DNA of 64,000 nucleotides from assembly GCA_910579205.1 (NCBI GenBank), contig CAJTTD010000011.1:4417-68416 (forward strand). Reading direction: 5' to 3'. Under the pieces are notes generated by a model. That model was not told where the DNA came from. It worked only from the letters and a program-made list of their open reading frames with translations, and made no database searches. Below, piece by piece: positions 3,872-36,897 of the stretch. A program made the translations under genes and the position numbers. Each line of letters begins with the position of its first letter. Positions within the stretch are counted from its first letter, which is position 1. This DNA is from an uncultured Christensenella sp. (GTDB lineage Bacteria; Bacillota; Clostridia; Christensenellales; Pumilibacteraceae).

Positions 3872-5545
3872 TTAAATGTTGCCGAAAAGTCCGGACATGA
3901 AATCGACATATGTTATAAGCTCCGGGGCAAAATCGCACAAGTAAACATATATCGTCTCGGGATACTGTTGTCCTTTGACCGTTACGTAGATATTGATAGA
4001 AATGTCTGTTCCGTCTACATAATCGGCTTTACCCTTTATGGAGTTGATGAACGAACGCTTGACGGTGTACGTTTTTGTTGATACGTCGTAAACTATATCG
4101 TTTTCCGCAAGCTCGCACTCGGTGTAGAAATATCCCTCGTCGTCGGCACGGTAGCAATACGCCGCTCTATACTCGATGTCGCTGAATTCGGCAGAACCGG
4201 TCTCCACCAAGAAGTTTACGTCGCCCGTTTGCGGAAGGACCACTATACGCGTGCTGTCGCCGATCTGCTGATCGGGGAAGAATTTATCTATAGTCCACGG
4301 CGCTTTATCGGTATCCACGATCTCGCTTACGGTAAGCGCAAACGAAGCGGTATAGTCGTTGTCGCCGAGAACGGTGAAACTTTCGTCCGCTACGCCGCTG
4401 AAGTTATGCGCAAACGAGCAAGACGCGTTTATCGCGGTAAGAGCGTCGGTTTCGTCGAATACAAAGTCGATCTGCGCCTTGCAATCGGTTACGGCAAAGC
4501 CTTGAGTGAACGCCGCTTTCAATTCGGGCTTTTGCTCTCCTATCATATCTACGAGTTCGTTCACTTTAAACGCGTCGAGCATAGTCGTAACGACGGCGAT
4601 AGCGCCTTCGAGATCGGCTTGGAGGGTGGTGGTGTCGTAAGGTTCTTCGGGGAACAAATAACCCATGATCTGCGCCGTCAAAGCGTTGGGATCGATAGGT
4701 CCTTCCATTAACGAGGGCAACACGTTGTTTACAACGGCTACCATGCCCTCGAGAAGCTGACCCACTTTCATGGCTTTTATCATTTCCACTACTTGAGGAT
4801 CGAGATCGGCAAGCAGCTCGTCAAAATTCAATGCGCCTTCGGACGCCGTCTCCAACATTTGCATAAGATCTTCGACGGAATTGTCTTTTGCCGCAACGCC
4901 CGCGGTTACTATAAAGTCTATTCCGCTTTCAAGATCGTAAGCATTGTCCGTAGCGACCTTTATAACTTCGTCCAAAACGTCTTTAAGCGAAAGTTGGTCG
5001 GCGTAAGCGGTTTGCATGAAAGTGAGAACGGAGTTGATCTCCTCTTTAAAGTCCGCTTTAAGGCTGAGCGTGGACGTTTCTTCGTCGTAAACGAAAAGCT
5101 CGGACACATCGACTTCTTCGGGTTCTTGGGCTTGCGCCATGTACTCTTTAAGCCCTTCAACATAGCCGCTCGGCATGACCTGGCGGTACATAAAACCTTG
5201 CGCATCGCCGAGATATATGTATCCCGAAGCAAGATCCAATAAAACGTCGTCGTTTTCCGCGCCCTCTTTGCTGAGGCGTATCTGATCGCCGCGTTTTTCC
5301 GCCGTGATCTTCCCATTGATCGCGGCAGTGTTTTTTGTATCCGCGTTTACTTCAACTTTCAAGGTAAAGCCGTTGGCTTTTACTATTTTATCCAAGTTGG
5401 ATCGAAGCGAAGTCAATGCGGCAGCGACCGTCTTTTCGTTTCCTTCGGGCGGGTTATCGTTGCCGCCTCTTTTACACGCTGCAAGTGAAAAGCAAAGAAC
5501 AAATGCAAGCAGCAACGTGATCAGCACTGAAAACTTTTTCTTCAT
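3872..5545 (-). CDS. Lipoprotein of unknown function
   Basis: ORF 3872..5605. Start set to ATG 5543-5545, preceded by an AAGGAG RBS. MKKKFSVLITLLLAFVLCFSLAAC is a signal peptide with a lipobox. Confidence 0.75.
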   Translation of the reverse strand: MKKKFSVLITLLLAFVLCFSLAACKRGGNDNPPEGNEKTVAAALTSLRSNLDKIVKANGFTLKVEVNADTKNTAAINGKITAEKRGDQIRLSKEGAENDDVLLDLASGYIYLGDAQGFMYRQVMPSGYVEGLKEYMAQAQEPEEVDVSELFVYDEETSTLSLKADFKEEINSVLTFMQTAYADQLSLKDVLDEVIKVATDNAYDLESGIDFIVTAGVAAKDNSVEDLMQMLETASEGALNFDELLADLDPQVVEMIKAMKVGQLLEGMVAVVNNVLPSLMEGPIDPNALTAQIMGYLFPEEPYDTTTLQADLEGAIAVVTTMLDAFKVNELVDMIGEQKPELKAAFTQGFAVTDCKAQIDFVFDETDALTAINASCSFAHNFSGVADESFTVLGDNDYTASFALTVSEIVDTDKAPWTIDKFFPDQQIGDSTRIVVLPQTGDVNFLVETGSAEFSDIEYRAAYCYRADDEGYFYTECELAENDIVYDVSTKTYTVKRSFINSIKGKADYVDGTDISINIYVTVKGQQYPETIYVYLCDFAPELITYVDFMSGLFGNI

Positions 5546-5576
5546 GATATACTCCTTTACGGTATTTTGTATCGTA

Positions 5577-5605
5577 ATTATACACCTAAGGCATACACAT
5601 GTCAA
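5577..5605 (-). promoter_or_regulatory. Consensus sigma-A promoter for the lipoprotein gene
   Basis: Minus strand reads TTGACA (5605-5600), a 17-nt spacer, then TATAAT (5582-5577), about 30 nt upstream of ATG 5545. Confidence 0.6.
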
Positions 5606-5800
5606 GTTATGCGTTCATATTATTTATATTTTTTTACAAGCGATACCGCACAGCGTTTAAAGCTTATCGCCGCATATTTGTATATGCGCGCGATCTGCCG
5701 AACGACAATGCGGATGTGCATTTTTACGATAATATTAAACGGTTTACAAAACTTTGTTTTCGTGTTGCGCTCACAATATTGTCCGCAAAATGCGGATAGT

Positions 5801-5859
5801 AGCCGTTAGTTGCAATACGGCGCAAAAAAGCCCTTGCAAGCAAGCTTTTTCATTTATAT
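5801..5859. repeat. Intergenic two-hairpin repeat, copy 1 (partner at 30969-31027)
   Basis: By hand alignment, 48/52 nt of the core and 53/59 nt overall match the second copy. It contains the hairpin GCCGT..ACGGC and an A-run/hairpin/T-run terminator-like module. It lies 6 nt past the radC-like stop. Confidence 0.7.
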
Positions 5860-5865
5860 ATAGCA

Positions 5866-6612
5866 TTACGCTCTATCATTCAAATAAGCGCGACGAACAG
5901 CGGCGTTGCGCGCTTCGACATAGCGCTTAATTCCGTGCGGATCGTCCGCGATATCGCTCAACTTTTTGTCCGTCGCAGCCGTTATGTCTATCACGCCTAT
6001 GCCATTGATCGCATTGACAAGACTGAATAGTTTGAACGGCGCGTATTCTATGTGATCGACGAGTCGAGCGCCGACTGCGGCAAGCGCATCGCTCAACCGC
6101 ATTATGTCGTCGAGTTTGCGCACGCTCGGTTCGGGCTTGGGACAGTGCGGTCTGAAGCTAACCGTTATCGATCTGTAAGCGCCGTATCTGCACGCATTGC
6201 CTACCACGCTGCGCACTATCTCTCCCTCTATCCTTTCGCAGTGCGATACTTTTCCGTTATCCGAAAGATATATGCAATACTCGCCGCTAACATCAGTGTT
6301 CATAAAGTACACCAACAAAAACCGTGCAAGCGAAGCTTCGCTGTCTATCACATTGCGATCGGACGCGCGTGCGACCGCTTGACGAAACGCCGGTTTTGCA
6401 AAAGTAAAGAACGCTGCGGCACGAGCGGTAATGCCCGTTACCGACATCAATTCCTCGCGAGTCGCATCGAACGCCCCGTTAAATGAACCGAATTTGCGAA
6501 TAAGCCGTTCCGCCAACTCTTCGCATTCATGTTCATATAACACATTCAATAAATATTTCAACAAACCTATATCGCTTACATGCTTTTCGTACAAAGACAC
6601 GATCGATCCCAT
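5866..6612 (-). CDS. RadC-like (UPF0758/JAB-fold) protein with a degenerate metal-binding motif
   Basis: The N-terminal HhH-like segment reads LIRKFGSFNGAFDATREELMSVTGI. The C-terminal segment SFRPHCPKPEPSVRKLD...LVDHIEY occupies the place of the canonical HNHPSG.PEPS..D...LDHII. Confidence 0.65.
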   Translation of the reverse strand: MGSIVSLYEKHVSDIGLLKYLLNVLYEHECEELAERLIRKFGSFNGAFDATREELMSVTGITARAAAFFTFAKPAFRQAVARASDRNVIDSEASLARFLLVYFMNTDVSGEYCIYLSDNGKVSHCERIEGEIVRSVVGNACRYGAYRSITVSFRPHCPKPEPSVRKLDDIMRLSDALAAVGARLVDHIEYAPFKLFSLVNAINGIGVIDITAATDKKLSDIADDPHGIKRYVEARNAAVRRAYLNDRA

Positions 6613-6676
6613 ATCTCACTTTCCGTAATTATAATTGCTTAAATACCGCGCTAAGCATAACGGCGCGTTTGCACCG

Positions 6677-6889
6677 CTATATTTCCGCCCTTCCGACAAG
6701 CTCGTCGATAGTGCAACAAAAATAATCGGCAAGAAGCCACAGACTTGTTATGCTCGGCTGTTTTTAATTGGACAACCAAGCGCTGACAGCGCTCGACACC
6801 ACCCCTATCTTTTTCGCAAGCTCGGATTGATTGAGCATGTTCTGTTTCATCAACAACCGTAAATCGTCTGCAAATTTTATATCGACCAT
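6677..6889 (-). pseudogene. XRE/Cro-type HTH regulator interrupted by an in-frame TAA
   Basis: My base-by-base translation reads MVDIKFADDLRLLMKQNMLNQSELAKKIGVVSSAVSAWLSN, then TAA (6764-6766), then KQPSITSLWLLADYFCCTIDELVGRAEI, then TAG (6677-6679). Both halves are in one frame and together make a typical ~70-aa HTH_3 protein. Confidence 0.7.
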
Positions 6890-6899
6890 ACAAACAATA

Positions 6900-6942
6900 T
6901 ATCTCTATGGAAACAAATAAAATCGATTTATCTCCATGGAAA
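6900..6942. promoter_or_regulatory. Two 14-nt direct repeats upstream of the XRE gene (putative operator)
   Basis: TATCTCTATGGAAA (6900-6913) and TATCTCCATGGAAA (6929-6942) differ by 1 nt and are 29 nt apart. The second contains the palindrome TCCATGGA. They lie 11-53 nt upstream of ATG 6889. Confidence 0.4.
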
Positions 6943-6985
6943 AATCAACGCTGCGCATGACAACGCCGATCATCACTGTCGAACG

Positions 6986-7747
6986 CTACTTTATATCGCC
7001 GCGTATCGCCGCAGACGGTACGTACTTGCGCGCGATGCTCAAGTATTCGCGCATTGTTTCCTCCGTCGGTGCGGAAAGACTTTTGTCGGGAACGGTGTCG
7101 CGCATGACAAAATACTGCAAAAAATATTTTTCCGCGCCCGCTATCATTTTTGCCGCGTCCTCTATAGAGTAGGCGTCGAACAGCTCGGAAATAACGGTGG
7201 TGCGAAATTCGTAGGGTACGCCCGAGCTCATAATAATGGATACGGAGCGCATTATCGGCGAAATATCGAACCGCTCAGACGGCAAGCCCACCGTTTCCGC
7301 ATAGCGGTCGGGTGCGTTTTTTATATCCATTGCTATGTAATCGAGCAAGCCTTCGTTTATCAAGCTTTCGAGATTTTCGGGGAGATATCCGTTTGTATCG
7401 AGCTTTATCTTATAACCGAGCCGTTTGATATCGCGCAAAAATCTGTCGAGGTCGGAATATAGTGTAGGCTCGCCGCCCGTTACGCATACGCCCTCGAGTA
7501 TGCCCGCTCGTTTTTTTAAAAAGTCGAAGATCTCCGATTCGTCGTAAAATAATACGTCCCTACCCAATAGCTCGCTGTTATGACAATACGGACAGCGGAA
7601 ATTACAGCTCGGCACAAACAGCGTACATGCCGTATGCTCGGGATAATCAAGCAACGTTAGCTTTTGAATGCCGCTTATCTTAATGTATCTCTCCAATATT
7701 TCAACCGCCTTGATGCTTTTGATATAAAATATTATACATAAAACCAC
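6986..7747 (-). CDS. Glycyl-radical-enzyme activase, anaerobic RNR activase (NrdG)-like radical SAM protein
   Basis: It carries GIQKLTLLDYPEHTACTLFVPSCNFRCPYCHN (a CxxxCxxC motif) and VTGGEP. The track start is GTG 7747. A shorter TTG start at 7696, with an AAGGCGG RBS, is at least as likely. Confidence 0.7.
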   Translation of the reverse strand: MVLCIIFYIKSIKAVEILERYIKISGIQKLTLLDYPEHTACTLFVPSCNFRCPYCHNSELLGRDVLFYDESEIFDFLKKRAGILEGVCVTGGEPTLYSDLDRFLRDIKRLGYKIKLDTNGYLPENLESLINEGLLDYIAMDIKNAPDRYAETVGLPSERFDISPIMRSVSIIMSSGVPYEFRTTVISELFDAYSIEDAAKMIAGAEKYFLQYFVMRDTVPDKSLSAPTEETMREYLSIARKYVPSAAIRGDIK

Positions 7748-7812
7748 TTAAAAAAACAAGCGATTTTTCGGCGGTAGGAACGCGCGGCGGTTCGTAAGGA
7801 TATGGCGGGCTA

Positions 7813-8844
7813 CTATAAGCACAATGTGCGAAGCAGCTTTCCCAATTTTAAACGCTTGCCCGCGGACATATCGAGCCCTATCAAGCAATACTCGTTATGA
7901 TACGCGCCGCATACGCAATAACCTTGCTCGTGTTCGAAAAACGGGCGATCCGAATATTGCGAAAGAGTATGAACGGGCGGCGGAGTTTTTACGTCGAAGC
8001 CCTCGTCTTTTATTCGCGCCGCGTGTTTTGCGCACTTGGCAAACGCGTATGTCGCCGCGTCCCCGTCGGTAGGCGGCGCTATGCATTCGGTTATTTTCAA
8101 AAGCAGTTCGAGATTGGCTTTCGCCCGTTCGGTTATCTTGTCGGCGGGATCGAGCAGCGCGCAATCGAGCGCGGCTATGGCGTTATGCATTCTGTAATCG
8201 TGATTTTCGCCGTCCGAATAGACTATACGCGCAAAGGCTTTCGCCTCGTCCGAGCCGTCGCCGCATACAAGCGCGCCGCCGCCGCCCGATACCCTTTTGC
8301 AAAACGATATAACGCCGAGGTCGCCGTTGCTGCCGCACGGCTTGCCCTTGTATTTGCCGCCGAACGCGTCGCACGCGAGTTCTATCACGGAAACGCCGTA
8401 ACTCTTGCAAAGCGGTATCAACGCGTCGAAGTCTGCTACCGCGCCGAACGCATTGTCTATAACGACGGCTTTGGGCAGTTTGTTTTGCAGTTGCGCCCAC
8501 AAAAATGCGGTGTCGAGCGCGAGTTCGGATACGCAGCGCGTTGCGGGGTCGCAGTCGATAAACACGGGAACTCCGCCCGCATGCGCGACGGTGGAAATAT
8601 TCGTATAAAACGTATACGACGGAACAAAAACATAGTCGCCGCCTCGCACTCCGCATATGTGCAATGCCGTATGTAACGCTCCGTCGGCAGAACTCATGGC
8701 GACCGTATTTTTGCCGTATCGCTGTTTCAGTTCGGACTGCAAACGCGCAACATAATCGACTCCCGACATGGAATCGCACAGCGCGCCCGCCGCACCGCCC
8801 TTTCTGTCTATAAATATCATGCGTATAGTATGTGCAGTATGCAC
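7813..8844 (-). CDS. DegT/DnrJ/EryC1/StrS-family PLP-dependent aminotransferase-like protein
   Basis: Supporting motifs are SSADGALHTALHICGVRGGDYVFVPSYTF..AGGVPVFIDCD and ISFCKRVSGGGGAL. The start is GTG 8844; ATG 8820 is an alternative. Confidence 0.65.
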   Translation of the reverse strand: MHTAHTIRMIFIDRKGGAAGALCDSMSGVDYVARLQSELKQRYGKNTVAMSSADGALHTALHICGVRGGDYVFVPSYTFYTNISTVAHAGGVPVFIDCDPATRCVSELALDTAFLWAQLQNKLPKAVVIDNAFGAVADFDALIPLCKSYGVSVIELACDAFGGKYKGKPCGSNGDLGVISFCKRVSGGGGALVCGDGSDEAKAFARIVYSDGENHDYRMHNAIAALDCALLDPADKITERAKANLELLLKITECIAPPTDGDAATYAFAKCAKHAARIKDEGFDVKTPPPVHTLSQYSDRPFFEHEQGYCVCGAYHNEYCLIGLDMSAGKRLKLGKLLRTLCL

Positions 8845-30968: not shown

Positions 30969-31027
30969 AGCCGTTAGTTGAAATACGGCGCGAAAAAGCT
31001 CTTGCGAGCAAGCTTTTTCACTTGTAT
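30969..31027. repeat. Intergenic two-hairpin repeat, copy 2 (partner at 5801-5859)
   Basis: Same element as at 5801-5859. GAAAAAGCT pairs with AGCTTTTTC, and GCCGT with ACGGC. It lies 36 nt past the stop of the last RiPP-cluster gene, so it is probably the operon terminator. Confidence 0.7.
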
Positions 31028-31063
31028 TATAACATTCAACGCGTATAAAAGCAAGCTTTTATG

Positions 31064-31822
31064 CTATGCGCAAGGTTTAAAATACAGATTATACGTAACG
31101 GCTTTGTTTTCGGATATTGCCGTTTGAATAAACTGCAACTCGTAGCCCTTTTTTATTACCGAATTTAATTTATCTTGGACCGATCTATCGAAAAACTCGC
31201 TCGGCAGATCGTAGGCTCGTTTCGGCACATCGTATTCCGCATAGAATTTAAGCTTGAATGCGTCGGGGGCAAAATCGGGCGCTGTCATATGCAAGCGCTC
31301 GTCCCCGCAGCGCGGATAAAAAAAAGCACTGCTACAGCCCAAAACGGAGACTACCGCATCATCTATAAATTTTTCGGCAAAGCACGTCGAACCGCTTTTT
31401 TGCAGTCGAAAATACGGGCATACTGCGACGCAGCGTTTGCCCGTAGCGGCGTCTACTCTTATTCCCAACACATGGTTATCGTATGCCGTATTGCTTTCGG
31501 ATAAAAAGTTCTTTAACATTTTCACTTTATCGGCACGGTAGTATGAATGTTCCGACAAAAGATATGACTCCAATTCATGCAAGTCGGCACTGCGCAAAGA
31601 AAAATCGTATTTAACGAATTTATCGCCTTCTTTACCTGCGGAAAAACAAATCAGCTTTTTTTCGGTTACTGCCCGATCGAAAAATTCTATACCTATGCTC
31701 GCGATCGGCCGAACGATTTTATAATATATTCGATCGCGCACTATAAAGCCATCCTCTACCGTGATCGCGTAGAAGTCTATATCGTTCCTTTTACATTCCG
31801 AAACGTCTGTAAATTTATTCAT
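31064..31822 (-). CDS. 252-aa protein of unknown function, last gene of the RiPP-like cluster
   Basis: ATG start 22 nt after the precursor stop. AT-rich. No catalytic motif recognised, no signal peptide and no TM helix. Confidence 0.6.
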   Translation of the reverse strand: MNKFTDVSECKRNDIDFYAITVEDGFIVRDRIYYKIVRPIASIGIEFFDRAVTEKKLICFSAGKEGDKFVKYDFSLRSADLHELESYLLSEHSYYRADKVKMLKNFLSESNTAYDNHVLGIRVDAATGKRCVAVCPYFRLQKSGSTCFAEKFIDDAVVSVLGCSSAFFYPRCGDERLHMTAPDFAPDAFKLKFYAEYDVPKRAYDLPSEFFDRSVQDKLNSVIKKGYELQFIQTAISENKAVTYNLYFKPCA

Positions 31823-31844
31823 TTATCGCTATCGCAAAATTATC

Positions 31845-32048
31845 TTACCAAAAATCGGTGTTGGCAGTGCAGCGCGCCGTACAGTTGTCGTCGCAACTTC
31901 CGCTACAAGAATCGGCGCAACCGCTTATGCAGCTGCCGCTACACGAAAACGCGCACGAAAAAGACACGCCGCATGTCGCCTCACATAGCTTATTGGAAGT
32001 GATGCGCGCTTTTATCTTACACAAAAGCTCCGGATCGATCTTAAACAT
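31845..32048 (-). CDS. Cys-rich RiPP precursor peptide (67 aa; 11 Cys, eight of them at Cx3C periodicity)
   Basis: An AAAGGAGAA RBS lies 6 nt before the ATG. The sequence is MFKIDPELLCKIKARITSNKL-CEATCGVSFSCAFSCSGSCISGCADSCSGSCDDNCTARCTANTDFW. It starts 41 nt downstream of the radical SAM/SPASM gene. Confidence 0.8.
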   Translation of the reverse strand: MFKIDPELLCKIKARITSNKLCEATCGVSFSCAFSCSGSCISGCADSCSGSCDDNCTARCTANTDFW

Positions 32049-32089
32049 TATATTCTCCTTTGATTTTATTTACAAGCAAGTAGTTTTTG

Positions 32090-33205
32090 CTACTGCAAGT
32101 TTTGAATATGTACAATGCTCCGCAACAACGCTTGCTCAGTGTCTTTATCGCACTTAAGCGTCCCGCGCGCCCATTCAATAGCTTTTAGCTTGGCGTTGGC
32201 TGCAAAAATCATTTTATACAATTTGCACCGCGCTTTATCCGGTTTATAAAGATCTCCGCAGCTTAAATAATTACTGCCCAAACAGAACGGACATATCTTC
32301 AGATAATAACAGTCCGCGCATTCACGGTCGAGCAAATCAATGTCAAGTTCATCATGGATATTCGCTTGCTCTGTAGTTATGGCTTTTGATCCGGCGGAGA
32401 TAGGAGCAAAAAGTTGACAAGGATACGCTGTTCCGCGCATGTCGTAACACACCATAGCAGTACCCGTGCCGCAGTATTTTTTTATCTTTTCATTCGACTG
32501 CGTGTCGTAAGCGAGTCTTTCTATTTTAAAATCGAGCATCGAACATTTTTTTATATTCGGGTCGTCCGCATACCAAGAAATAAGATCGTTCAATTGTTCC
32601 GCCAGCGTCTTTACGTTCGATTCGGACAACCAGTCTACCATATATGCCAAATTGCACGCCACCGTAAAACCCAAAGACGTTAAATACTTGACGCTCTCCG
32701 AAAAATACGGCATGGACAGTTCGGACACGGTCATTTTTATCGGCTGTTCCGGATAGTTTTTCAAAAAGAACGCTAAATCTATTTTATCGAAGCTATCCGA
32801 TCGATTTAAATTATGGGCGACACGGTTTCCGTCTAAGCTTAACCCTACGCTGAAATTTTTCCGCGCGCTCAACCACTCGGCAATATCCCCGTGTACCAAT
32901 GTGCCGTTTGTAGTTGCAAAAAACCGTATTTTGCCTTTATAGAACGACATGACATAATCGTAAACTTGCTTTATCAGATCGAAATTCAAAAAAGGCTCGC
33001 CGCCGAAAAACTCTATATAAGTGTTTTCTTTGGGTTTTCCGTAAATAAGCTCTCGATCTATGATCTGCTTGGCGCGATCAAACGTCATGTCAGATGCGGA
33101 CTTGTTGTGTTCGTAACAGTACACGCACGACAGATTGCATCGTTCCGTTACTATCAAAGATATGGTACGCGTGTTAGACTCGTTCATTTCGGTTGTTATA
33201 GCCAT
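32090..33205 (-). CDS. Radical SAM / SPASM-domain peptide maturase
   Basis: ORF 32090..33301. Start set to ATG 33203-33205 (MAITTEMNES), which overlaps the upstream stop (TAATG). The radical SAM motif is CNLSCVYC. The C-terminal Cys cluster CGTGTAMVCYDMRGTAYPC...CADCYYLKICPFC fits a SPASM domain. Confidence 0.85.
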   Translation of the reverse strand: MAITTEMNESNTRTISLIVTERCNLSCVYCYEHNKSASDMTFDRAKQIIDRELIYGKPKENTYIEFFGGEPFLNFDLIKQVYDYVMSFYKGKIRFFATTNGTLVHGDIAEWLSARKNFSVGLSLDGNRVAHNLNRSDSFDKIDLAFFLKNYPEQPIKMTVSELSMPYFSESVKYLTSLGFTVACNLAYMVDWLSESNVKTLAEQLNDLISWYADDPNIKKCSMLDFKIERLAYDTQSNEKIKKYCGTGTAMVCYDMRGTAYPCQLFAPISAGSKAITTEQANIHDELDIDLLDRECADCYYLKICPFCLGSNYLSCGDLYKPDKARCKLYKMIFAANAKLKAIEWARGTLKCDKDTEQALLRSIVHIQNLQ

Positions 33206-34290
33206 TATACAGACACCTTGCCGTCCGAGCATTGAACGATACGCGCTTGCGTGCCGACATTCCATCCGTCGCCTTTTTGCACCGCGCGCCATTCGTCGCA
33301 TGTGCCGCCGTACGATATGCTTTCAAGCCCGTCGCAATCGTAAAAAGCATACGCCCCTATCTCCGACACCGTTTGCGGTATGTATGCGTTTTTTATTCCG
33401 TCGCAATCGTAAAAAGCATAGCTTGATATTTTTTCCAGTCCGTCGTCAAGTATCGCATTAACCAAAAGCCCGTCGTACACAAACAGATCGTGCGTGTAGT
33501 AAGTCGGATTGCAGTACTTATCCGCAAAACTGATTTGACACCATTGCGTAGCAGTGCCGAGATAAACGACGTTTTTGAGCGCACCGCACTTTATAAACGC
33601 TTTTTTGCGAATGTTTTTTATCGACGAGGGGATGGTAATACCGTTCAACCCGCCAAAGCTTCTGAAAGAGCATTTGCTTATACCCGTTACGGGCTTTCCT
33701 TCCACTTCGGCAGCGACAGTCAAATATCGCAGACCTTTCCCGCTGTACCCCACAAGCTCCATTTCGTCTGCGTCCGATTCTTTCAGCAAACGCTCGGTCA
33801 GACTGTAACCCGCGTACATACCGTTCTCATACAAGCGCGGCGTAGAAGCGCCGCTGTCGGCAAACCACATCGTACAGCCCAAAATCGTGATAGGTAGCGA
33901 CACAGTCAGCGCGCATACGTTAGCAACGCGCATAAAACCGCCTTTTGATAAAGCTGTATCTATGATACGGGAAGTAAACAATAACGCCATGCCTATCCCC
34001 GTCATTATCCAAAACAGCTCCGATACGGCAACGGTACAAATTGCACCGACGACACATGAAACACCGCCGACTATCGCGCCTATTACCCCGAATAATGTCG
34101 GATCATCGCACTTACCGAATTCGATACAACCTATCACAAGCAATAAACACAGAACCGCTCCGCCCATAACTATCCACGGCATCACTTTTCCCGTGATCGC
34201 GGCGTCGTAATAATAAGATATAAATACGATCGATATTACGGTCAACACGACTGCGTTAGATGTTCCCAAAATGCGCTCTGCTTTATTCAT
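33205..34290 (-). CDS. Polytopic membrane protein with a C-terminal BspA-type leucine-rich-repeat domain
   Basis: About 5 N-terminal TM helices are followed by LRR_5-like repeats (ITIPSSIKNIRKKAFIKCGALKNV; LEKISSYAFYDCDGIKNAYIPQTVSEIGAYAFYDCDGLESI). No clear SD sequence is present. Confidence 0.65.
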   Translation of the reverse strand: MNKAERILGTSNAVVLTVISIVFISYYYDAAITGKVMPWIVMGGAVLCLLLVIGCIEFGKCDDPTLFGVIGAIVGGVSCVVGAICTVAVSELFWIMTGIGMALLFTSRIIDTALSKGGFMRVANVCALTVSLPITILGCTMWFADSGASTPRLYENGMYAGYSLTERLLKESDADEMELVGYSGKGLRYLTVAAEVEGKPVTGISKCSFRSFGGLNGITIPSSIKNIRKKAFIKCGALKNVVYLGTATQWCQISFADKYCNPTYYTHDLFVYDGLLVNAILDDGLEKISSYAFYDCDGIKNAYIPQTVSEIGAYAFYDCDGLESISYGGTCDEWRAVQKGDGWNVGTQARIVQCSDGKVSV

Positions 34291-34382
34291 TGTTTTTATT
34301 GCGAGTTTTCCGCTTCGACAACTGCGCAGCGTTTATTCGCATGCTCCTTTTATTTGTCTCTCGTTATTTGTGTTTGAAATTT

Positions 34383-36173
34383 TCAGCACCAATTGATTTC
34401 GGTTATCAATTCTCCGTTTTTCCCGTTCGTTCGAGATGCCGCCGAAATATCGCAAGTGATCTTTATTTCGTCGCATAAGGCTTTCCCGCCGCTGCCGGGC
34501 GTTCCGTATGCGCCTCTGCTCGCAGTTGTATTTCCCAAGACCGACGCATTCCATCCGGAGGTATCGTTGTCATGCACACCGCCCGCCTTGCCTGTCTTGC
34601 CGCCGTTCCCGCCGACTAACGTAAGACTTCCGCTCGAATACGTCAAGACTGCGGCATTGACAGCGATACCGCCGTCGCCGCCATTGCCGCCGCGTCCGCC
34701 GACCACGTGCTTTTCGCCCTTTGTAAATTCCCTTCTATTACATTCGCTGGCATCGCCGCCGCTGCCGCCGTTGCCGCCCGCGATACGAACTTCGCCTAAA
34801 GATTCGCCGATAAATATAACGATATCGTCGGTTACTCTTACCCCGTCGCCGCCGTCGCCGCCGCGAAACCCGTTTCTGCCGTTACTGCCGTCGCCGCCGT
34901 TGTCGCCGATAGCGCGATTGTAAGCATTCCCGCCGTTGCCGCCGATAACTTCGAGCATATTTTCTCCTGCAAAGACGCTCAAGCTTGCCGCTATAATACC
35001 GTCGCCGCCGCGCCCGCCGTTTTCGACGCCGCTTTTGCCGTCCCCGCCGCGCACTCGCAACGGAGCTCTGCACATTATTTCAAGCGTATTATTTACTAAA
35101 TTTATAGCCGGCGCACCGTTTTCGCTCGTTCCGATATAATTATTTGTTCCTATCGTTTCTATTATTATTGTTCTGTCGCTCGTAGAAGTTACTGTACCCC
35201 AAGGAGAGTCGCCGATTATATTGGCGTTTTTCAAAATTATGTGAGCCGCGCTGTCAGAGCCGCCGCCTATGGAAATATTGATATTCTCATAGCTTGTTTC
35301 CGGATCGCCGTACAACAGCGCATTTGCGTTTTGACCGGAAAGCACGATCGTGCCCGATGCCGATCTCAGATCCACCGCCCGTCCCAATAACAGCGCCGAA
35401 TATTCGCCGTCGGATGTTATAGCTCCGCTCGCAACGCTTTCGCCGTCCGCAGTCCAACTGATAACGTCCAAGTCGCCGATTTTTAAACCCAATGCGGCGT
35501 CGGCGATATCCGTTCCGTACTCCACCGTAAGCTCCTCTATCAAGGTTTTGTCGTCGCCCGTACCGTTGAAAAACTTTACATTTAACTTTTCGTACCCGAC
35601 GTCGGCATAAAGCTTCACCTTATATCCGTCGCCTTGTTCATAATTGGAATGATCGAAGACTTTGTAATTTTGAGTAGCGCGCCCGTCGCCGTCCGCAATA
35701 AGATCGCCGCCGTTCGACGCCGTGCGCCATCCGTTGAATACTCTGTGAACGCCGACATTCAGTATAGGCAATGCCCCGAGTTCTTTACCGCTCTCTGCGC
35801 TTATTGCGCCGTCGCTCGACAATGTTCCTTCATCGTAACAAAATTCGAATTTGTACTCCCGTGCGACAAATCTGACGAAAAGCACAATGTCTTTGGCATC
35901 CAAAAACGGTCTTACGCTCCGTCCGTCCGCGTTTACGTATTTTGTCCCGTCGACCTCCGAATCGTACAAACCGTCAAATACATATCCGTCCTTAACGGGT
36001 ATTTCGGGTATTTCATACACGTCATCCAAGCGCACTTCTATTACATATTCGTTGTCGTATGCGTATCGAACAGTATAAACCTTATCCGCATCTTTATCTT
36101 TGCAACCCATCGATATAAAAGTCGATAGTGCGACTGCAAAAATAAAACCTAATACTATCCCAACTTTTTTCAT
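34383..36173 (-). CDS. Lipoprotein with Listeria-Bacteroides (Flg_new) repeats and a Gly-rich GGxGG beta-helix-like region
   Basis: ORF 34383..36236. Start set to ATG 36171-36173, with a GAGGAAAAA RBS. The lipobox is in MKKVGIVLGFIFAVALSTFISMGC. Supporting segments are VKDGYVFDGLYD and VFNGWRT, then GGDGKSG..GGRGGDG..GGNGGN..GGDGGDG..GGNGGSGG..GGRGGNGGDGG..GGNGGKTG. Confidence 0.75.
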   Translation of the reverse strand: MKKVGIVLGFIFAVALSTFISMGCKDKDADKVYTVRYAYDNEYVIEVRLDDVYEIPEIPVKDGYVFDGLYDSEVDGTKYVNADGRSVRPFLDAKDIVLFVRFVAREYKFEFCYDEGTLSSDGAISAESGKELGALPILNVGVHRVFNGWRTASNGGDLIADGDGRATQNYKVFDHSNYEQGDGYKVKLYADVGYEKLNVKFFNGTGDDKTLIEELTVEYGTDIADAALGLKIGDLDVISWTADGESVASGAITSDGEYSALLLGRAVDLRSASGTIVLSGQNANALLYGDPETSYENINISIGGGSDSAAHIILKNANIIGDSPWGTVTSTSDRTIIIETIGTNNYIGTSENGAPAINLVNNTLEIMCRAPLRVRGGDGKSGVENGGRGGDGIIAASLSVFAGENMLEVIGGNGGNAYNRAIGDNGGDGSNGRNGFRGGDGGDGVRVTDDIVIFIGESLGEVRIAGGNGGSGGDASECNRREFTKGEKHVVGGRGGNGGDGGIAVNAAVLTYSSGSLTLVGGNGGKTGKAGGVHDNDTSGWNASVLGNTTASRGAYGTPGSGGKALCDEIKITCDISAASRTNGKNGELITEINWC

Positions 36174-36203
36174 TTTTTCCTCGGTTGATTTTATATTATG
36201 AAT

Positions 36204-36232
36204 AATATAACAAACGAAAAAAGCCTTGTCAA
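36204..36232 (-). promoter_or_regulatory. Sigma-A promoter for the Gly-rich lipoprotein gene (and possibly the RiPP cluster)
   Basis: Minus strand reads TTGACA (36232-36227), a 17-nt spacer, then TATATT (36209-36204), about 30 nt upstream of ATG 36173. Confidence 0.55.
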
Positions 36233-36288
36233 GCAAATCACTACTGTAGCACAGATATAAGAGTGGTGATTTTTGCTAAACTAACAAT

Positions 36289-36537
36289 ATGAATCTAAAC
36301 CAATTTATATCGGAAAAGTTGGAAAAACTGCGCAAGGAAAAAGGCTTAGGCGTATACACACTATGCAACAAAGCGGCTATATCTTATGAAACGTACCGAA
36401 GCATACGCAAAAACCGCAACAAGGATATATATTTAAGAACTCTGCTTATTCTGCTCCAAACTCTTAACATTTCACCGAAAGAATTTTTCGACGATCCCGC
36501 GTTCACAGACGGCACTATAGATCTGGACTTTAAGTAA
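36289..36537 (+). CDS. XRE-family HTH transcriptional regulator
   Basis: The 82-aa product carries LRKEKGLGVYTLCNKAAISYETYRSIRKNR...TLLILLQTLNISPKEFF. It is divergent from the lipoprotein/RiPP operon. Confidence 0.75.
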   Translation: MNLNQFISEKLEKLRKEKGLGVYTLCNKAAISYETYRSIRKNRNKDIYLRTLLILLQTLNISPKEFFDDPAFTDGTIDLDFK

Positions 36538-36545
36538 AAATAAAT

Positions 36546-36622
36546 AAGGCGTCCGATATTTTCACATTCAAACGCCTTTTATATCTTCTATTTATTCGAG
36601 CGCGGTAGCCCGCGCTTTTATT
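36546..36622. terminator. Two tandem terminator hairpins between convergent genes
   Basis: The first hairpin pairs AAGGCGT (36546-36552) with ACGCCTT (36572-36578), followed by a T-run. The second pairs AGCGCGG (36599-36605) with CCGCGCT (36610-36616), followed by TTTTATT. Confidence 0.55.
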
Positions 36623-36651
36623 ACGCACTCAGAGTTGACTGCCACGCGATC

Positions 36652-36723
36652 GACCGAGCGCCGCGAAGCACGCAGTCCGTATGGCGACGCATATACGCCG
36701 TTTCAGTCGTTTGCGTGCTTGCC
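36652..36723. repeat. 72-nt direct repeat, copy 1
   Basis: By hand alignment, 68/72 nt match 36826-36897. It has internal 9-nt inverted arms, AAGCACGCA (36666-36674) and TGCGTGCTT (36712-36720). Confidence 0.75.
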
Positions 36724-36825
36724 GGCAAGCTGCTACATAATTATGCATGTATTTGAAACGGCGGAGATGCGAGCAAGACGGACAGCCGGCGACAAGGCGC
36801 GACGGGAGTGTAGACCACCCTACAT

Positions 36826-36897
36826 GACCGAGCGCCGCGAAGCACGCAGTCCATATTGCGACGCATATACGTCGTTTCAGTCGTTAGCGTGCTTGCC
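36826..36897. repeat. 72-nt direct repeat, copy 2 (overlaps the typA 3' end)
   Basis: It starts exactly 174 nt after copy 1. The typA stop codon (36877-36879) and the last ~17 codons of typA lie inside it. Confidence 0.75.

Follow-up and report, generated by a model that had tools for sequence, protein, structure and literature searches.

We analysed a stretch of 64,000 nt (the window) from an uncultured Christensenella sp. (GenBank assembly GCA_910579205.1, contig CAJTTD010000011.1). At 31845..32048, its minus strand encodes a 67-aa peptide with eight Cys at exact four-residue spacing, between the genes of a radical S-adenosylmethionine (rSAM)/SPASM enzyme and of a 252-aa protein whose modelled fold is that of ABBA prenyltransferases (PTs). 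The open reading frame (ORF) is very probably the precursor of an rSAM-modified RiPP (ribosomally synthesised, post-translationally modified peptide). For the system as a whole we favour, as slightly better than an even bet, a thioether ladder peptide that is made by the rSAM enzyme and carries a prenylated C-terminal Trp. The elements concerned are listed below (RRE, RiPP recognition element).

31845..32048, minus strand: precursor peptide gene, 67 aa plus stop, MFKIDPELLCKIKARITSNKLCEATCGVSFSCAFSCSGSCISGCADSCSGSCDDNCTARCTANTDFW (from translation, homologues and selection)
32055..32060, minus strand: Shine-Dalgarno sequence AAGGAG, 6 nt 5' of the peptide ATG (direct sequence reading)
31974..32048, minus strand: leader, residues 1 to about 25, motif MFxLxxELxxKIKxxIxxxxLxPA (alignment A3)
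31869..31955, minus strand: Cys ladder C32-C60, eight Cys at exact i/i+4, that is, seven Cx3C units
31848..31862, minus strand: C-terminal motif NTDFW, whose last residue, Trp67, is proposed to accept the prenyl group
32090..33205, minus strand: rSAM/SPASM peptide maturase of 371 aa without an N-terminal RRE (Pfam Radical_SAM and Fer4_12 above cut-off)
31064..31822, minus strand: 252-aa ABBA (PT-barrel) prenyltransferase-like protein (AlphaFold2 and Foldseek)

The peptide gene and its Cys ladder

Translation of the plus strand over 31845-32048 gave no sensible product. On the minus strand, the ORF is annotated as a 67-aa gene in a public assembly with an identical locus (GCA_949416565.1). When the peptide was compared with its orthologue at locus L081 (66 % identical), the proportion of synonymous differences (pS) was 0.84, meaning that synonymous sites were saturated, against 0.25 for nonsynonymous ones (pN), and six of the eight ladder Cys codons were switched between TGC and TGT with the Cys retained. 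These codon patterns point to purifying selection on the protein sequence. From the Shine-Dalgarno sequence, the gene call, the pN and pS values and the switched Cys codons we therefore conclude that the peptide is real, translated and under selection. A chance or untranslated frame would be compatible with the small size of the ORF and with nothing else. It would have to account for a strong Shine-Dalgarno sequence, a run of eight Cys in register that was reached by one of 10^6 permutations of the peptide's own residues, a leader and a ladder kept across more than 50 loci, the purifying selection and the annotation in public assemblies. We give this explanation practically no credence and regard it as effectively refuted already.

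A word-indexed protein search found no homologues of the peptide. Because the peptide query itself matched nothing, its family was traced through the neighbours of the rSAM enzyme, for which 906 homologues were found at E<=1e-10, mostly in animal-gut metagenomes and almost all without names. The loci around these homologues were fetched from genomes and metagenomes, and 59 distinct small ladder ORFs were found to adjoin homologous rSAM genes in 50 loci. The pairs of enzyme and peptide occur in Clostridia, Bacteroidales, Treponema and Verrucomicrobia; the metagenome scan contributed 36 loci, with no close relatives among them.

The 11 Cys of the window peptide are at positions 10, 22, 26, 32, 36, 40, 44, 48, 52, 56 and 60. 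Across the aligned close clade, each of the eight ladder Cys is invariant or almost invariant, while C10, C22 and C26 are unconserved and specific to the window. Among the other short ORFs of the window (first-ATG peptides of <=140 aa with >=4 Cys), none has a ladder run of more than three. A DNA tandem repeat as the source of the periodicity was considered and rejected, as Tandem Repeats Finder found none. The family peptides share one layout: a conserved leader, a short linker and then a Cys run at four-residue spacing, the gap being exactly four in 274 of 369 successive-Cys intervals. Of 282 family Cx3C units, 44 % have Gly at x2 and 65 % have Ser, Gly or Thr at x3; the residue at x1 varies and is often acidic. 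Ladders in the family have 3 to 10 Cys (median 5). With its eight Cys, the window ladder is a typical one and belongs to the top tenth by length; ten Cys are found in L001 and L070.

The leader region lacks a GG motif. L8 and L21 are invariant among the 16 family peptides of alignment A3, and the motif listed above is the Clostridia form, with related forms in Bacteroidales and Treponema (MFDLxxL… and MKLFNLxxxELEFLK…). The NTDFW motif is identical in the L081 peptide and in the last paralogue of L082. The latter locus (L082:3284-4263) has five tandem paralogous precursors after one rSAM gene, with ladders of 3-8 Cys and NTDFW in the last one only; one enzyme apparently serves several cores there.

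The first-pass annotation (made from the window sequence alone) had noticed the eight Cys at exact four-residue spacing and had read the ORF as a precursor with an N-terminal leader and a ladder core. The spacing is borne out by minus-strand translation and the Cys positions, and the precursor reading by the adjacent rSAM/SPASM enzyme and the conserved leader. Its leader of 21 residues is close to the conserved length of about 25 residues. Its figure of up to ten cross-links is not supported: only the eight ladder Cys are conserved, and eight is the relevant number because C10, C22 and C26 are not. Nor is the ladder unique: family members reach 3-10 Cys in register and two of them have ten.

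The rSAM/SPASM enzyme and the curated families

The adjacent enzyme is an rSAM/SPASM maturase. It has the SAM-cluster motif C23-x3-C27-x2-C30 and seven SPASM Cys in the canonical arrangement (C245, C263, C296, C299, C305, C308 and C327), and all ten of these Cys are invariant among 39 family members. A seven-Cys SPASM motif as in CteB leaves one iron of an auxiliary cluster free for a substrate thiolate. The SAM motif begins after only about 22 residues. Among solved structures, the SCIFF maturase CteB (5wgg) is the closest, and the alignment covers its residues 93-439 and leaves 1-92 unmatched; from the short N-terminus and this late start of the alignment, we conclude that the enzyme lacks the N-terminal RRE of CteB and PapB. 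Pfam found neither a B12 nor a methyltransferase domain in it. No protease, transporter or RRE protein is conserved family-wide in the clustered loci, where the peptide is the sole conserved neighbour.

The only NCBIfam matches of the peptide are to two 'Cys-Xaa-Xaa-Xaa repeat radical SAM target' models, TIGR04117 (14.2 bits, cut-off 50) and TIGR04114 (11.3 bits, cut-off 20). By score, it belongs to neither of them. It has the layout by which the CXXX-repeat type is recognised, namely eight Cys in register and an rSAM gene 41 nt upstream. Furthermore, the peptide of the close relative L001 passes TIGR04114 at 23.3 bits, and those of L081 and L082 have weak precomputed matches to a newer Pfam family of this type, PF27846 (tSAM_targ_Cxxx_rpt). 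No SCIFF match was found for the window peptide with Pfam.

The enzyme gave a similar picture. Its best NCBIfam match is the PapB family (148 bits, cut-off 340, near-full-length alignment to the model), followed by TIGR04115, the radical SAM peptide maturase of the CXXX-repeat target family (118 bits, cut-off 350, model positions 1-356 of 359), and then by the nif11-like peptide, HxsB, CcpM, QhpD and SCIFF maturases. Six other family enzymes from four phyla and the L087 enzyme scored 104-168 bits, with TIGR04115 at 104-150, and none of the seven family enzymes scanned passed an equivalog cut-off. The enzyme falls outside the PapB/freyrasin group, with 148 bits, no N-terminal RRE and, in its precursor, Cx3 units that are mostly followed by Cys and not by Asp or Glu. 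It also falls outside SCIFF/ScfB (TIGR03974, 84 bits, cut-off 425). Judged by these scores, the peptide is of a type that has been predicted bioinformatically, but its clade lies outside every curated model.

The CXXX-repeat class has been in the databases since about 2011. The system was reportedly defined bioinformatically by D. Haft, and is said to be linked to the work of Haft and Basu from that year. In the literature searched we found no experimental characterisation of TIGR04115/CXXX-repeat systems and no structure of a product, and also no characterised CX3C ranthipeptide, RRE-less Cys-rich rSAM RiPP or prenylated sacti- or ranthipeptide. The first-pass annotation had named a match to a described precursor family of known product topology as what would overturn it; the family has been described bioinformatically, and a product topology was not found.

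The ABBA-fold protein and the C-terminal Trp

The first-pass annotation recognised the precursor but overlooked the PT-like gene downstream of it and what the C-terminal Trp may signify. Searches of Pfam, NCBIfam and PDB with the 252-aa protein, singly or as a profile, gave no sequence match for any of 15 members; the best match to any PT family model was Trp_DMAT at E 0.08 in one remote homologue, and by sequence the protein is thus not a member of Trp_DMAT, PTase_Orf2 or similar PT families. Only 14 representatives were found at E<=1e-3 among 1.84e9 proteins. The single-sequence AlphaFold2 model was poor (predicted local distance difference test, pLDDT, 34.5), but with the 15-sequence alignment pLDDT rose to 86.6 and the predicted template modelling (TM) score to 0.86, with ten strands alternating with helices. 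The top 34 Foldseek matches in PDB were all ABBA aromatic or indole PTs (probability 1.0, E down to 3e-5), including EpzP, FamD1, AmbP1/3, AnaPT, CdpNPT, FunA, DMATS1, NotF, CloQ and CymD; the query-normalised TM-scores were 0.46-0.58 and the sequence identity was at most 14 %. The modelled fold is the ABBA fold, a ten-stranded antiparallel barrel of alpha-beta-beta-alpha units. Invariant in the family are Y33, Y137, D183, K190, K192, Y194, Q233, A235 and Y247, and these residues form the strand motifs K-x-K-x-Y, Q-x-A and Y-N-x-Y, which may resemble the diphosphate-binding motifs of indole PTs such as FgaPT2.

A hidden Markov model of the PT-like family placed its gene directly after the peptide in the window's own locus (WIN) and in L081, L082, L001, L006, L047 and L075, and context look-ups for six further family members showed a pair of rSAM and ladder-peptide genes beside each one. 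A peptide ends in Trp in 12 of 13 PT-like loci and in 1 of 43 loci without the gene, the latter being on a truncated contig; Fisher's test gave p = 3e-10, a value that overstates independence because the association rests on few lineages. The endings are …NTDFW (three times), …DSNW and …GW/…SW/…EW. In addition, Nudix genes whose best match is type-1 isopentenyl diphosphate (IPP) isomerase lie within 2 of the 13 clusters (L087:1984-2544, a cluster represented by L087/L088, and L089:2530-3132). Their scores of 114 and 90 bits, respectively, are below the cut-off of 127, with near-full-length alignment to the model, and both genes overlap the stop codon of the preceding gene, that is, they are translationally coupled. 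A dedicated supply of dimethylallyl diphosphate is what would be expected beside a prenyltransferase.

Several relatives of the cluster showed further variations. In a Lachnospiraceae branch of the rSAM family (L012-L014, L016, L017, L020-L023, L025 and L026), the precursor has two Cys and a penultimate Trp (…SGELN[MF]SGCxxxxC[MQ]AW[DA]), and a remote 280-aa homologue of the PT-like protein is kept (hhalign 93.9 %, E 1.6e-7, 225 columns). For example, L017 has the peptide at 5667-5873, the PT homologue at 4795-5646, the rSAM gene at 5977-7092 and a Ser/Thr-kinase-like gene at 7099-8112. This branch looks like a separate, unnamed RiPP family. At L090:4522-6876, the PT-like gene is immediately followed by genes for a LytTR regulator, an HATPase_c_5 kinase and an ABC transporter. 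Such an Agr-like arrangement, seen at a single locus, hints at a pheromone role and recalls prenylated ComX-type pheromones. At L092:2584-3909, the PT-like gene is followed by a second, longer rSAM/SPASM enzyme of 441 aa with its best matches to TIGR04463 and Clo7bot-type maturases, and this cluster may make further modifications.

Proposed pathway and its alternatives

We propose that the conserved leader of about 25 residues, probably helical, docks the peptide on the RRE-less rSAM/SPASM enzyme, which, with its SAM-cleaving cluster and the seven SPASM Cys for two auxiliary clusters, would work along the eight-Cys ladder. A helical tail of roughly 40 residues after its SPASM domain is a candidate for the element that replaces the RRE. 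Each thiol would most likely be turned into an intramolecular S-C thioether, and the product would be a string of small in-line rings comparable to the six of freyrasin. Since Cys at every fourth residue is the only invariant feature of the repeat, the acceptor may be the next Cys at i+4 or else a carbon, of backbone or side chain, in the small x2/x3 residues; in the latter case the linkage would be sactionine-like and independent of the side chain. Judging from the closest relatives of the enzyme and from its seven SPASM Cys, we put the chance of such a thioether ladder at about even. The ABBA-fold enzyme would then prenylate the indole of Trp67 and thus lipidate the end of the peptide; we consider prenylation of this residue fairly probable, and the order of the two steps is presumptive. 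Export and leader removal would be left to genes outside the cluster, and the product could possibly act as a membrane-active or pheromone-like lipopeptide.

Several points weigh against this proposal. The chemistry is drawn wholly from analogy. The enzyme is far below the cut-offs of PapB, TIGR04115 and SCIFF, so that its reaction may differ, and the Asp/Glu acceptor used by PapB is missing from most repeats. For the second step, the TM-scores are moderate, the identity to known PTs is low and no PT sequence model is matched. The Trp association, besides resting on few lineages, has an exception in L089, where the peptide of a PT-like locus ends in …CKAYKADMPK. Finally, the window cluster itself has no IPP isomerase, protease or transporter.

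The ladder could also remain as free thiols or disulfides in a redox peptide or in one that binds metal, Fe-S or Cu, with the rSAM enzyme making some other modification or with the Cys merely ligating its auxiliary cluster. In a helix, Cys at this spacing would all fall on one face, the small polar residues in between are as in many metal-binding peptides, and the repeat has no conserved acceptor residue. We nevertheless regard this as improbable: among the 42 genome-collection loci that were clustered, conservation of a metal-transport or metal-resistance gene near the cassette was not seen, the nearest relatives of the enzyme are Cys-thioether synthases, and the strict pairing with a SPASM rSAM enzyme across phyla argues that the Cys are its substrate. 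Equally hard to favour is an enzyme that alters Cys without forming rings, by formylglycine or thioaldehyde formation as in the anaerobic sulfatase maturase (anSME), by epimerisation or by another radical reaction. In fact, the second-best match among solved structures is anSME (4k37, E 4e-10), TIGR03942 is among the matches of the enzyme, and both enzymes have no RRE. On the other hand, the peptide has no C/S-x-P/A-x-R sulfatase motif, the thioether maturases score 148 and 118 bits against 55 bits, and the enzyme, as noted, has neither B12 nor methyltransferase domain.

As to the tail of the peptide, the 252-aa protein could have the ABBA fold and yet not be a prenyltransferase; it might bind or chaperone the leader or the peptide in place of an RRE, or transfer another group. 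The absence of any PT sequence match, the TM-scores of only about 0.5 and the length of 252 aa, shorter than the characterised ABBA enzymes (about 290-420 aa), are in line with this. But most branches of the rSAM family work without the protein, which therefore cannot be a general RRE substitute; the gene tracks the terminal Trp, IPP-isomerase-like genes occur within two clusters, and the invariant strand motifs may resemble those with which indole PTs such as FgaPT2 bind diphosphate. We judge a non-prenylating role to be rather unlikely. A thioether ladder with a prenylated Trp67 is thus the explanation that we prefer. A bolder form of it, which we hold to be doubtful, would make the peptide the founding member of a new RiPP class in anaerobic gut bacteria, in which concatenated rings and Trp lipidation give a rigid, lipid-anchored rod. 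The RRE-less enzyme would zip the ladder, possibly with a bond from the S of each Cys to a carbon of the Cys four residues on, which would make every Cys donor and acceptor at once; a new, minimal family of ABBA peptide PTs would lipidate the C-terminal Trp, and the rod would serve as a pheromone or membrane-active peptide.

Neighbouring genes and variation of the cluster

On the minus strand, the gene order is Flg_new protein, LRR_5 protein, rSAM enzyme, peptide, 252-aa PT-like protein and guaA. The peptide gene follows the rSAM gene by 41 nt and precedes the PT-like gene by 22 nt. The features upstream of the rSAM gene are as follows (XRE-type helix-turn-helix, HTH).

33205..34269, minus strand: multi-pass membrane protein with BspA-type LRR_5 repeats (Pfam LRR_5)
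34383..36173, minus strand: 596-aa secreted or surface protein with Listeria-Bacteroides repeat (Flg_new) and a long Gly-rich C-terminus
36204-36232: promoter-like site, 11/12 matches before the Flg_new gene, a consensus match only
36289..36537, plus strand: 82-aa XRE-type HTH protein, divergent, candidate regulator (weak HTH_26 match)

The stop codon of the LRR_5 gene and the start codon of the rSAM gene overlap by 1 nt (TAATG), from which we take the two to be co-transcribed. The LRR_5 gene is also present in L081 and missing from other branches, and the Flg_new gene, which heads the apparent operon, is kept upstream in L081 and L082. Both were considered as possible pathway genes; they are clade-specific and are listed here as co-transcribed only. 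The promoter and terminator scan was at background, with 11 found and 10.4 expected, and a promoter-like match just 5' of the peptide was disregarded because it overlaps the start codon. By gene calls and Pfam, a similar divergent HTH gene is found upstream of the cassette in L081, L082, L087, L089 and L090; small divergent ORFs in L001, L004 and L007 are alike by sequence only.

Sister strains with flanks of 96-97 % nt identity (L083-L085, compared with 31016-36826 of the window) are missing the HTH, Flg_new, LRR_5, rSAM and peptide genes. In them, position 33243 of the window is joined directly to 31797. What is left between bipA and guaA encodes a 274-aa chimera, in which the C-terminus of the LRR_5 protein is fused to the PT-like protein. 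From this deletion we conclude that the cluster is strain-variable and decays. Elsewhere in the family, serine-recombinase genes adjoin the cassette of rSAM and peptide (L005:5211-5813, L007:5003-5608 and a third homologue in L023), and the flanking genes of these three loci differ. The adjacent recombinases and differing flanks suggest that the two-gene cassette is mobile.

Significance and comparison with known systems

The system is a variant of a known bioinformatic kind, not categorically new, and no characterised product was found in the literature searched. What is added is the delineation of a large family of RRE-less rSAM enzymes with Cx3C-ladder peptides outside the curated models, and a small, previously unrecognised ABBA PT-like family tied to a C-terminal Trp. 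If the proposal is true, it would offer a compact three-gene test system for the CXXX-repeat radical SAM targets, an example of an rSAM maturase that recognises a conserved leader without an RRE, and a very small family of ABBA peptide PTs in gut Clostridia aimed at a C-terminal Trp. Peptide PTs are sought as catalysts for the late-stage lipidation of peptides (PMC13290415). With 906 rSAM homologues, mostly from animal-gut metagenomes, the product may be ecologically common. Large surveys of rSAM RiPPs have relied on an associated RRE or on ABC transporters encoded nearby (PMC10288494); the window cluster has neither and is therefore not expected in RRE-based surveys.

The closest named counterpart is the CXXX-repeat system, which has likewise small peptides with Cys at every fourth residue beside short (about 360 aa), RRE-less rSAM/SPASM enzymes. 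The present clade differs from it by its own conserved leader and, in part, by the PT-like partner and terminal Trp. In Paenibacillus polymyxa, PapB converts the repeated Cys-x3 motifs of its precursor into the six in-line thioether rings of freyrasin, with Cys-S linked to Asp-C-beta within CX3D motifs (PMC9413430), and residues 1-86 of PapB are its N-terminal RRE (PMC12715619). The window system shares with PapA/PapB the best-scoring enzyme family and a precursor with repeated Cys-x3. However, PapB joins Cys to Asp/Glu at i+4, whereas this position is another Cys in the window peptide, with acidic residues sporadic; the enzyme has no RRE, and its score is under half of the family cut-off. SCIFF/CteB/ScfB (thermocellin) is similar in its Cys-rich core, in which a few Cx3C units occur, in its rSAM/SPASM thioether synthase and in a cluster without transporter or protease, but the window peptide has a longer, strictly periodic ladder, its enzyme has no RRE and there is a PT-like partner.

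For the PT-like protein, the cyanobactin F enzymes are PTs that occur in RiPP clusters (PMC13290415), and the location of the window gene within such a cluster is alike. Unlike the known ABBA enzymes, the 252-aa protein is shorter, has no detectable sequence similarity to them, comes from anaerobic gut Firmicutes and not from cyanobacteria, actinomycetes or fungi, and has a radical SAM partner. PalQ prenylates the C-terminal Trp of peptides and prefers Gly before the Trp (PMC13290415), and many of the PT-associated peptides found here end in …GW. PalQ and ComQ have an isoprenoid-synthase fold (like trans-isoprenyl diphosphate synthases), in contrast to the predicted ABBA barrel of the window protein, and the ComX and PalA peptides lack both the Cys ladder and the rSAM partner of the window peptide.

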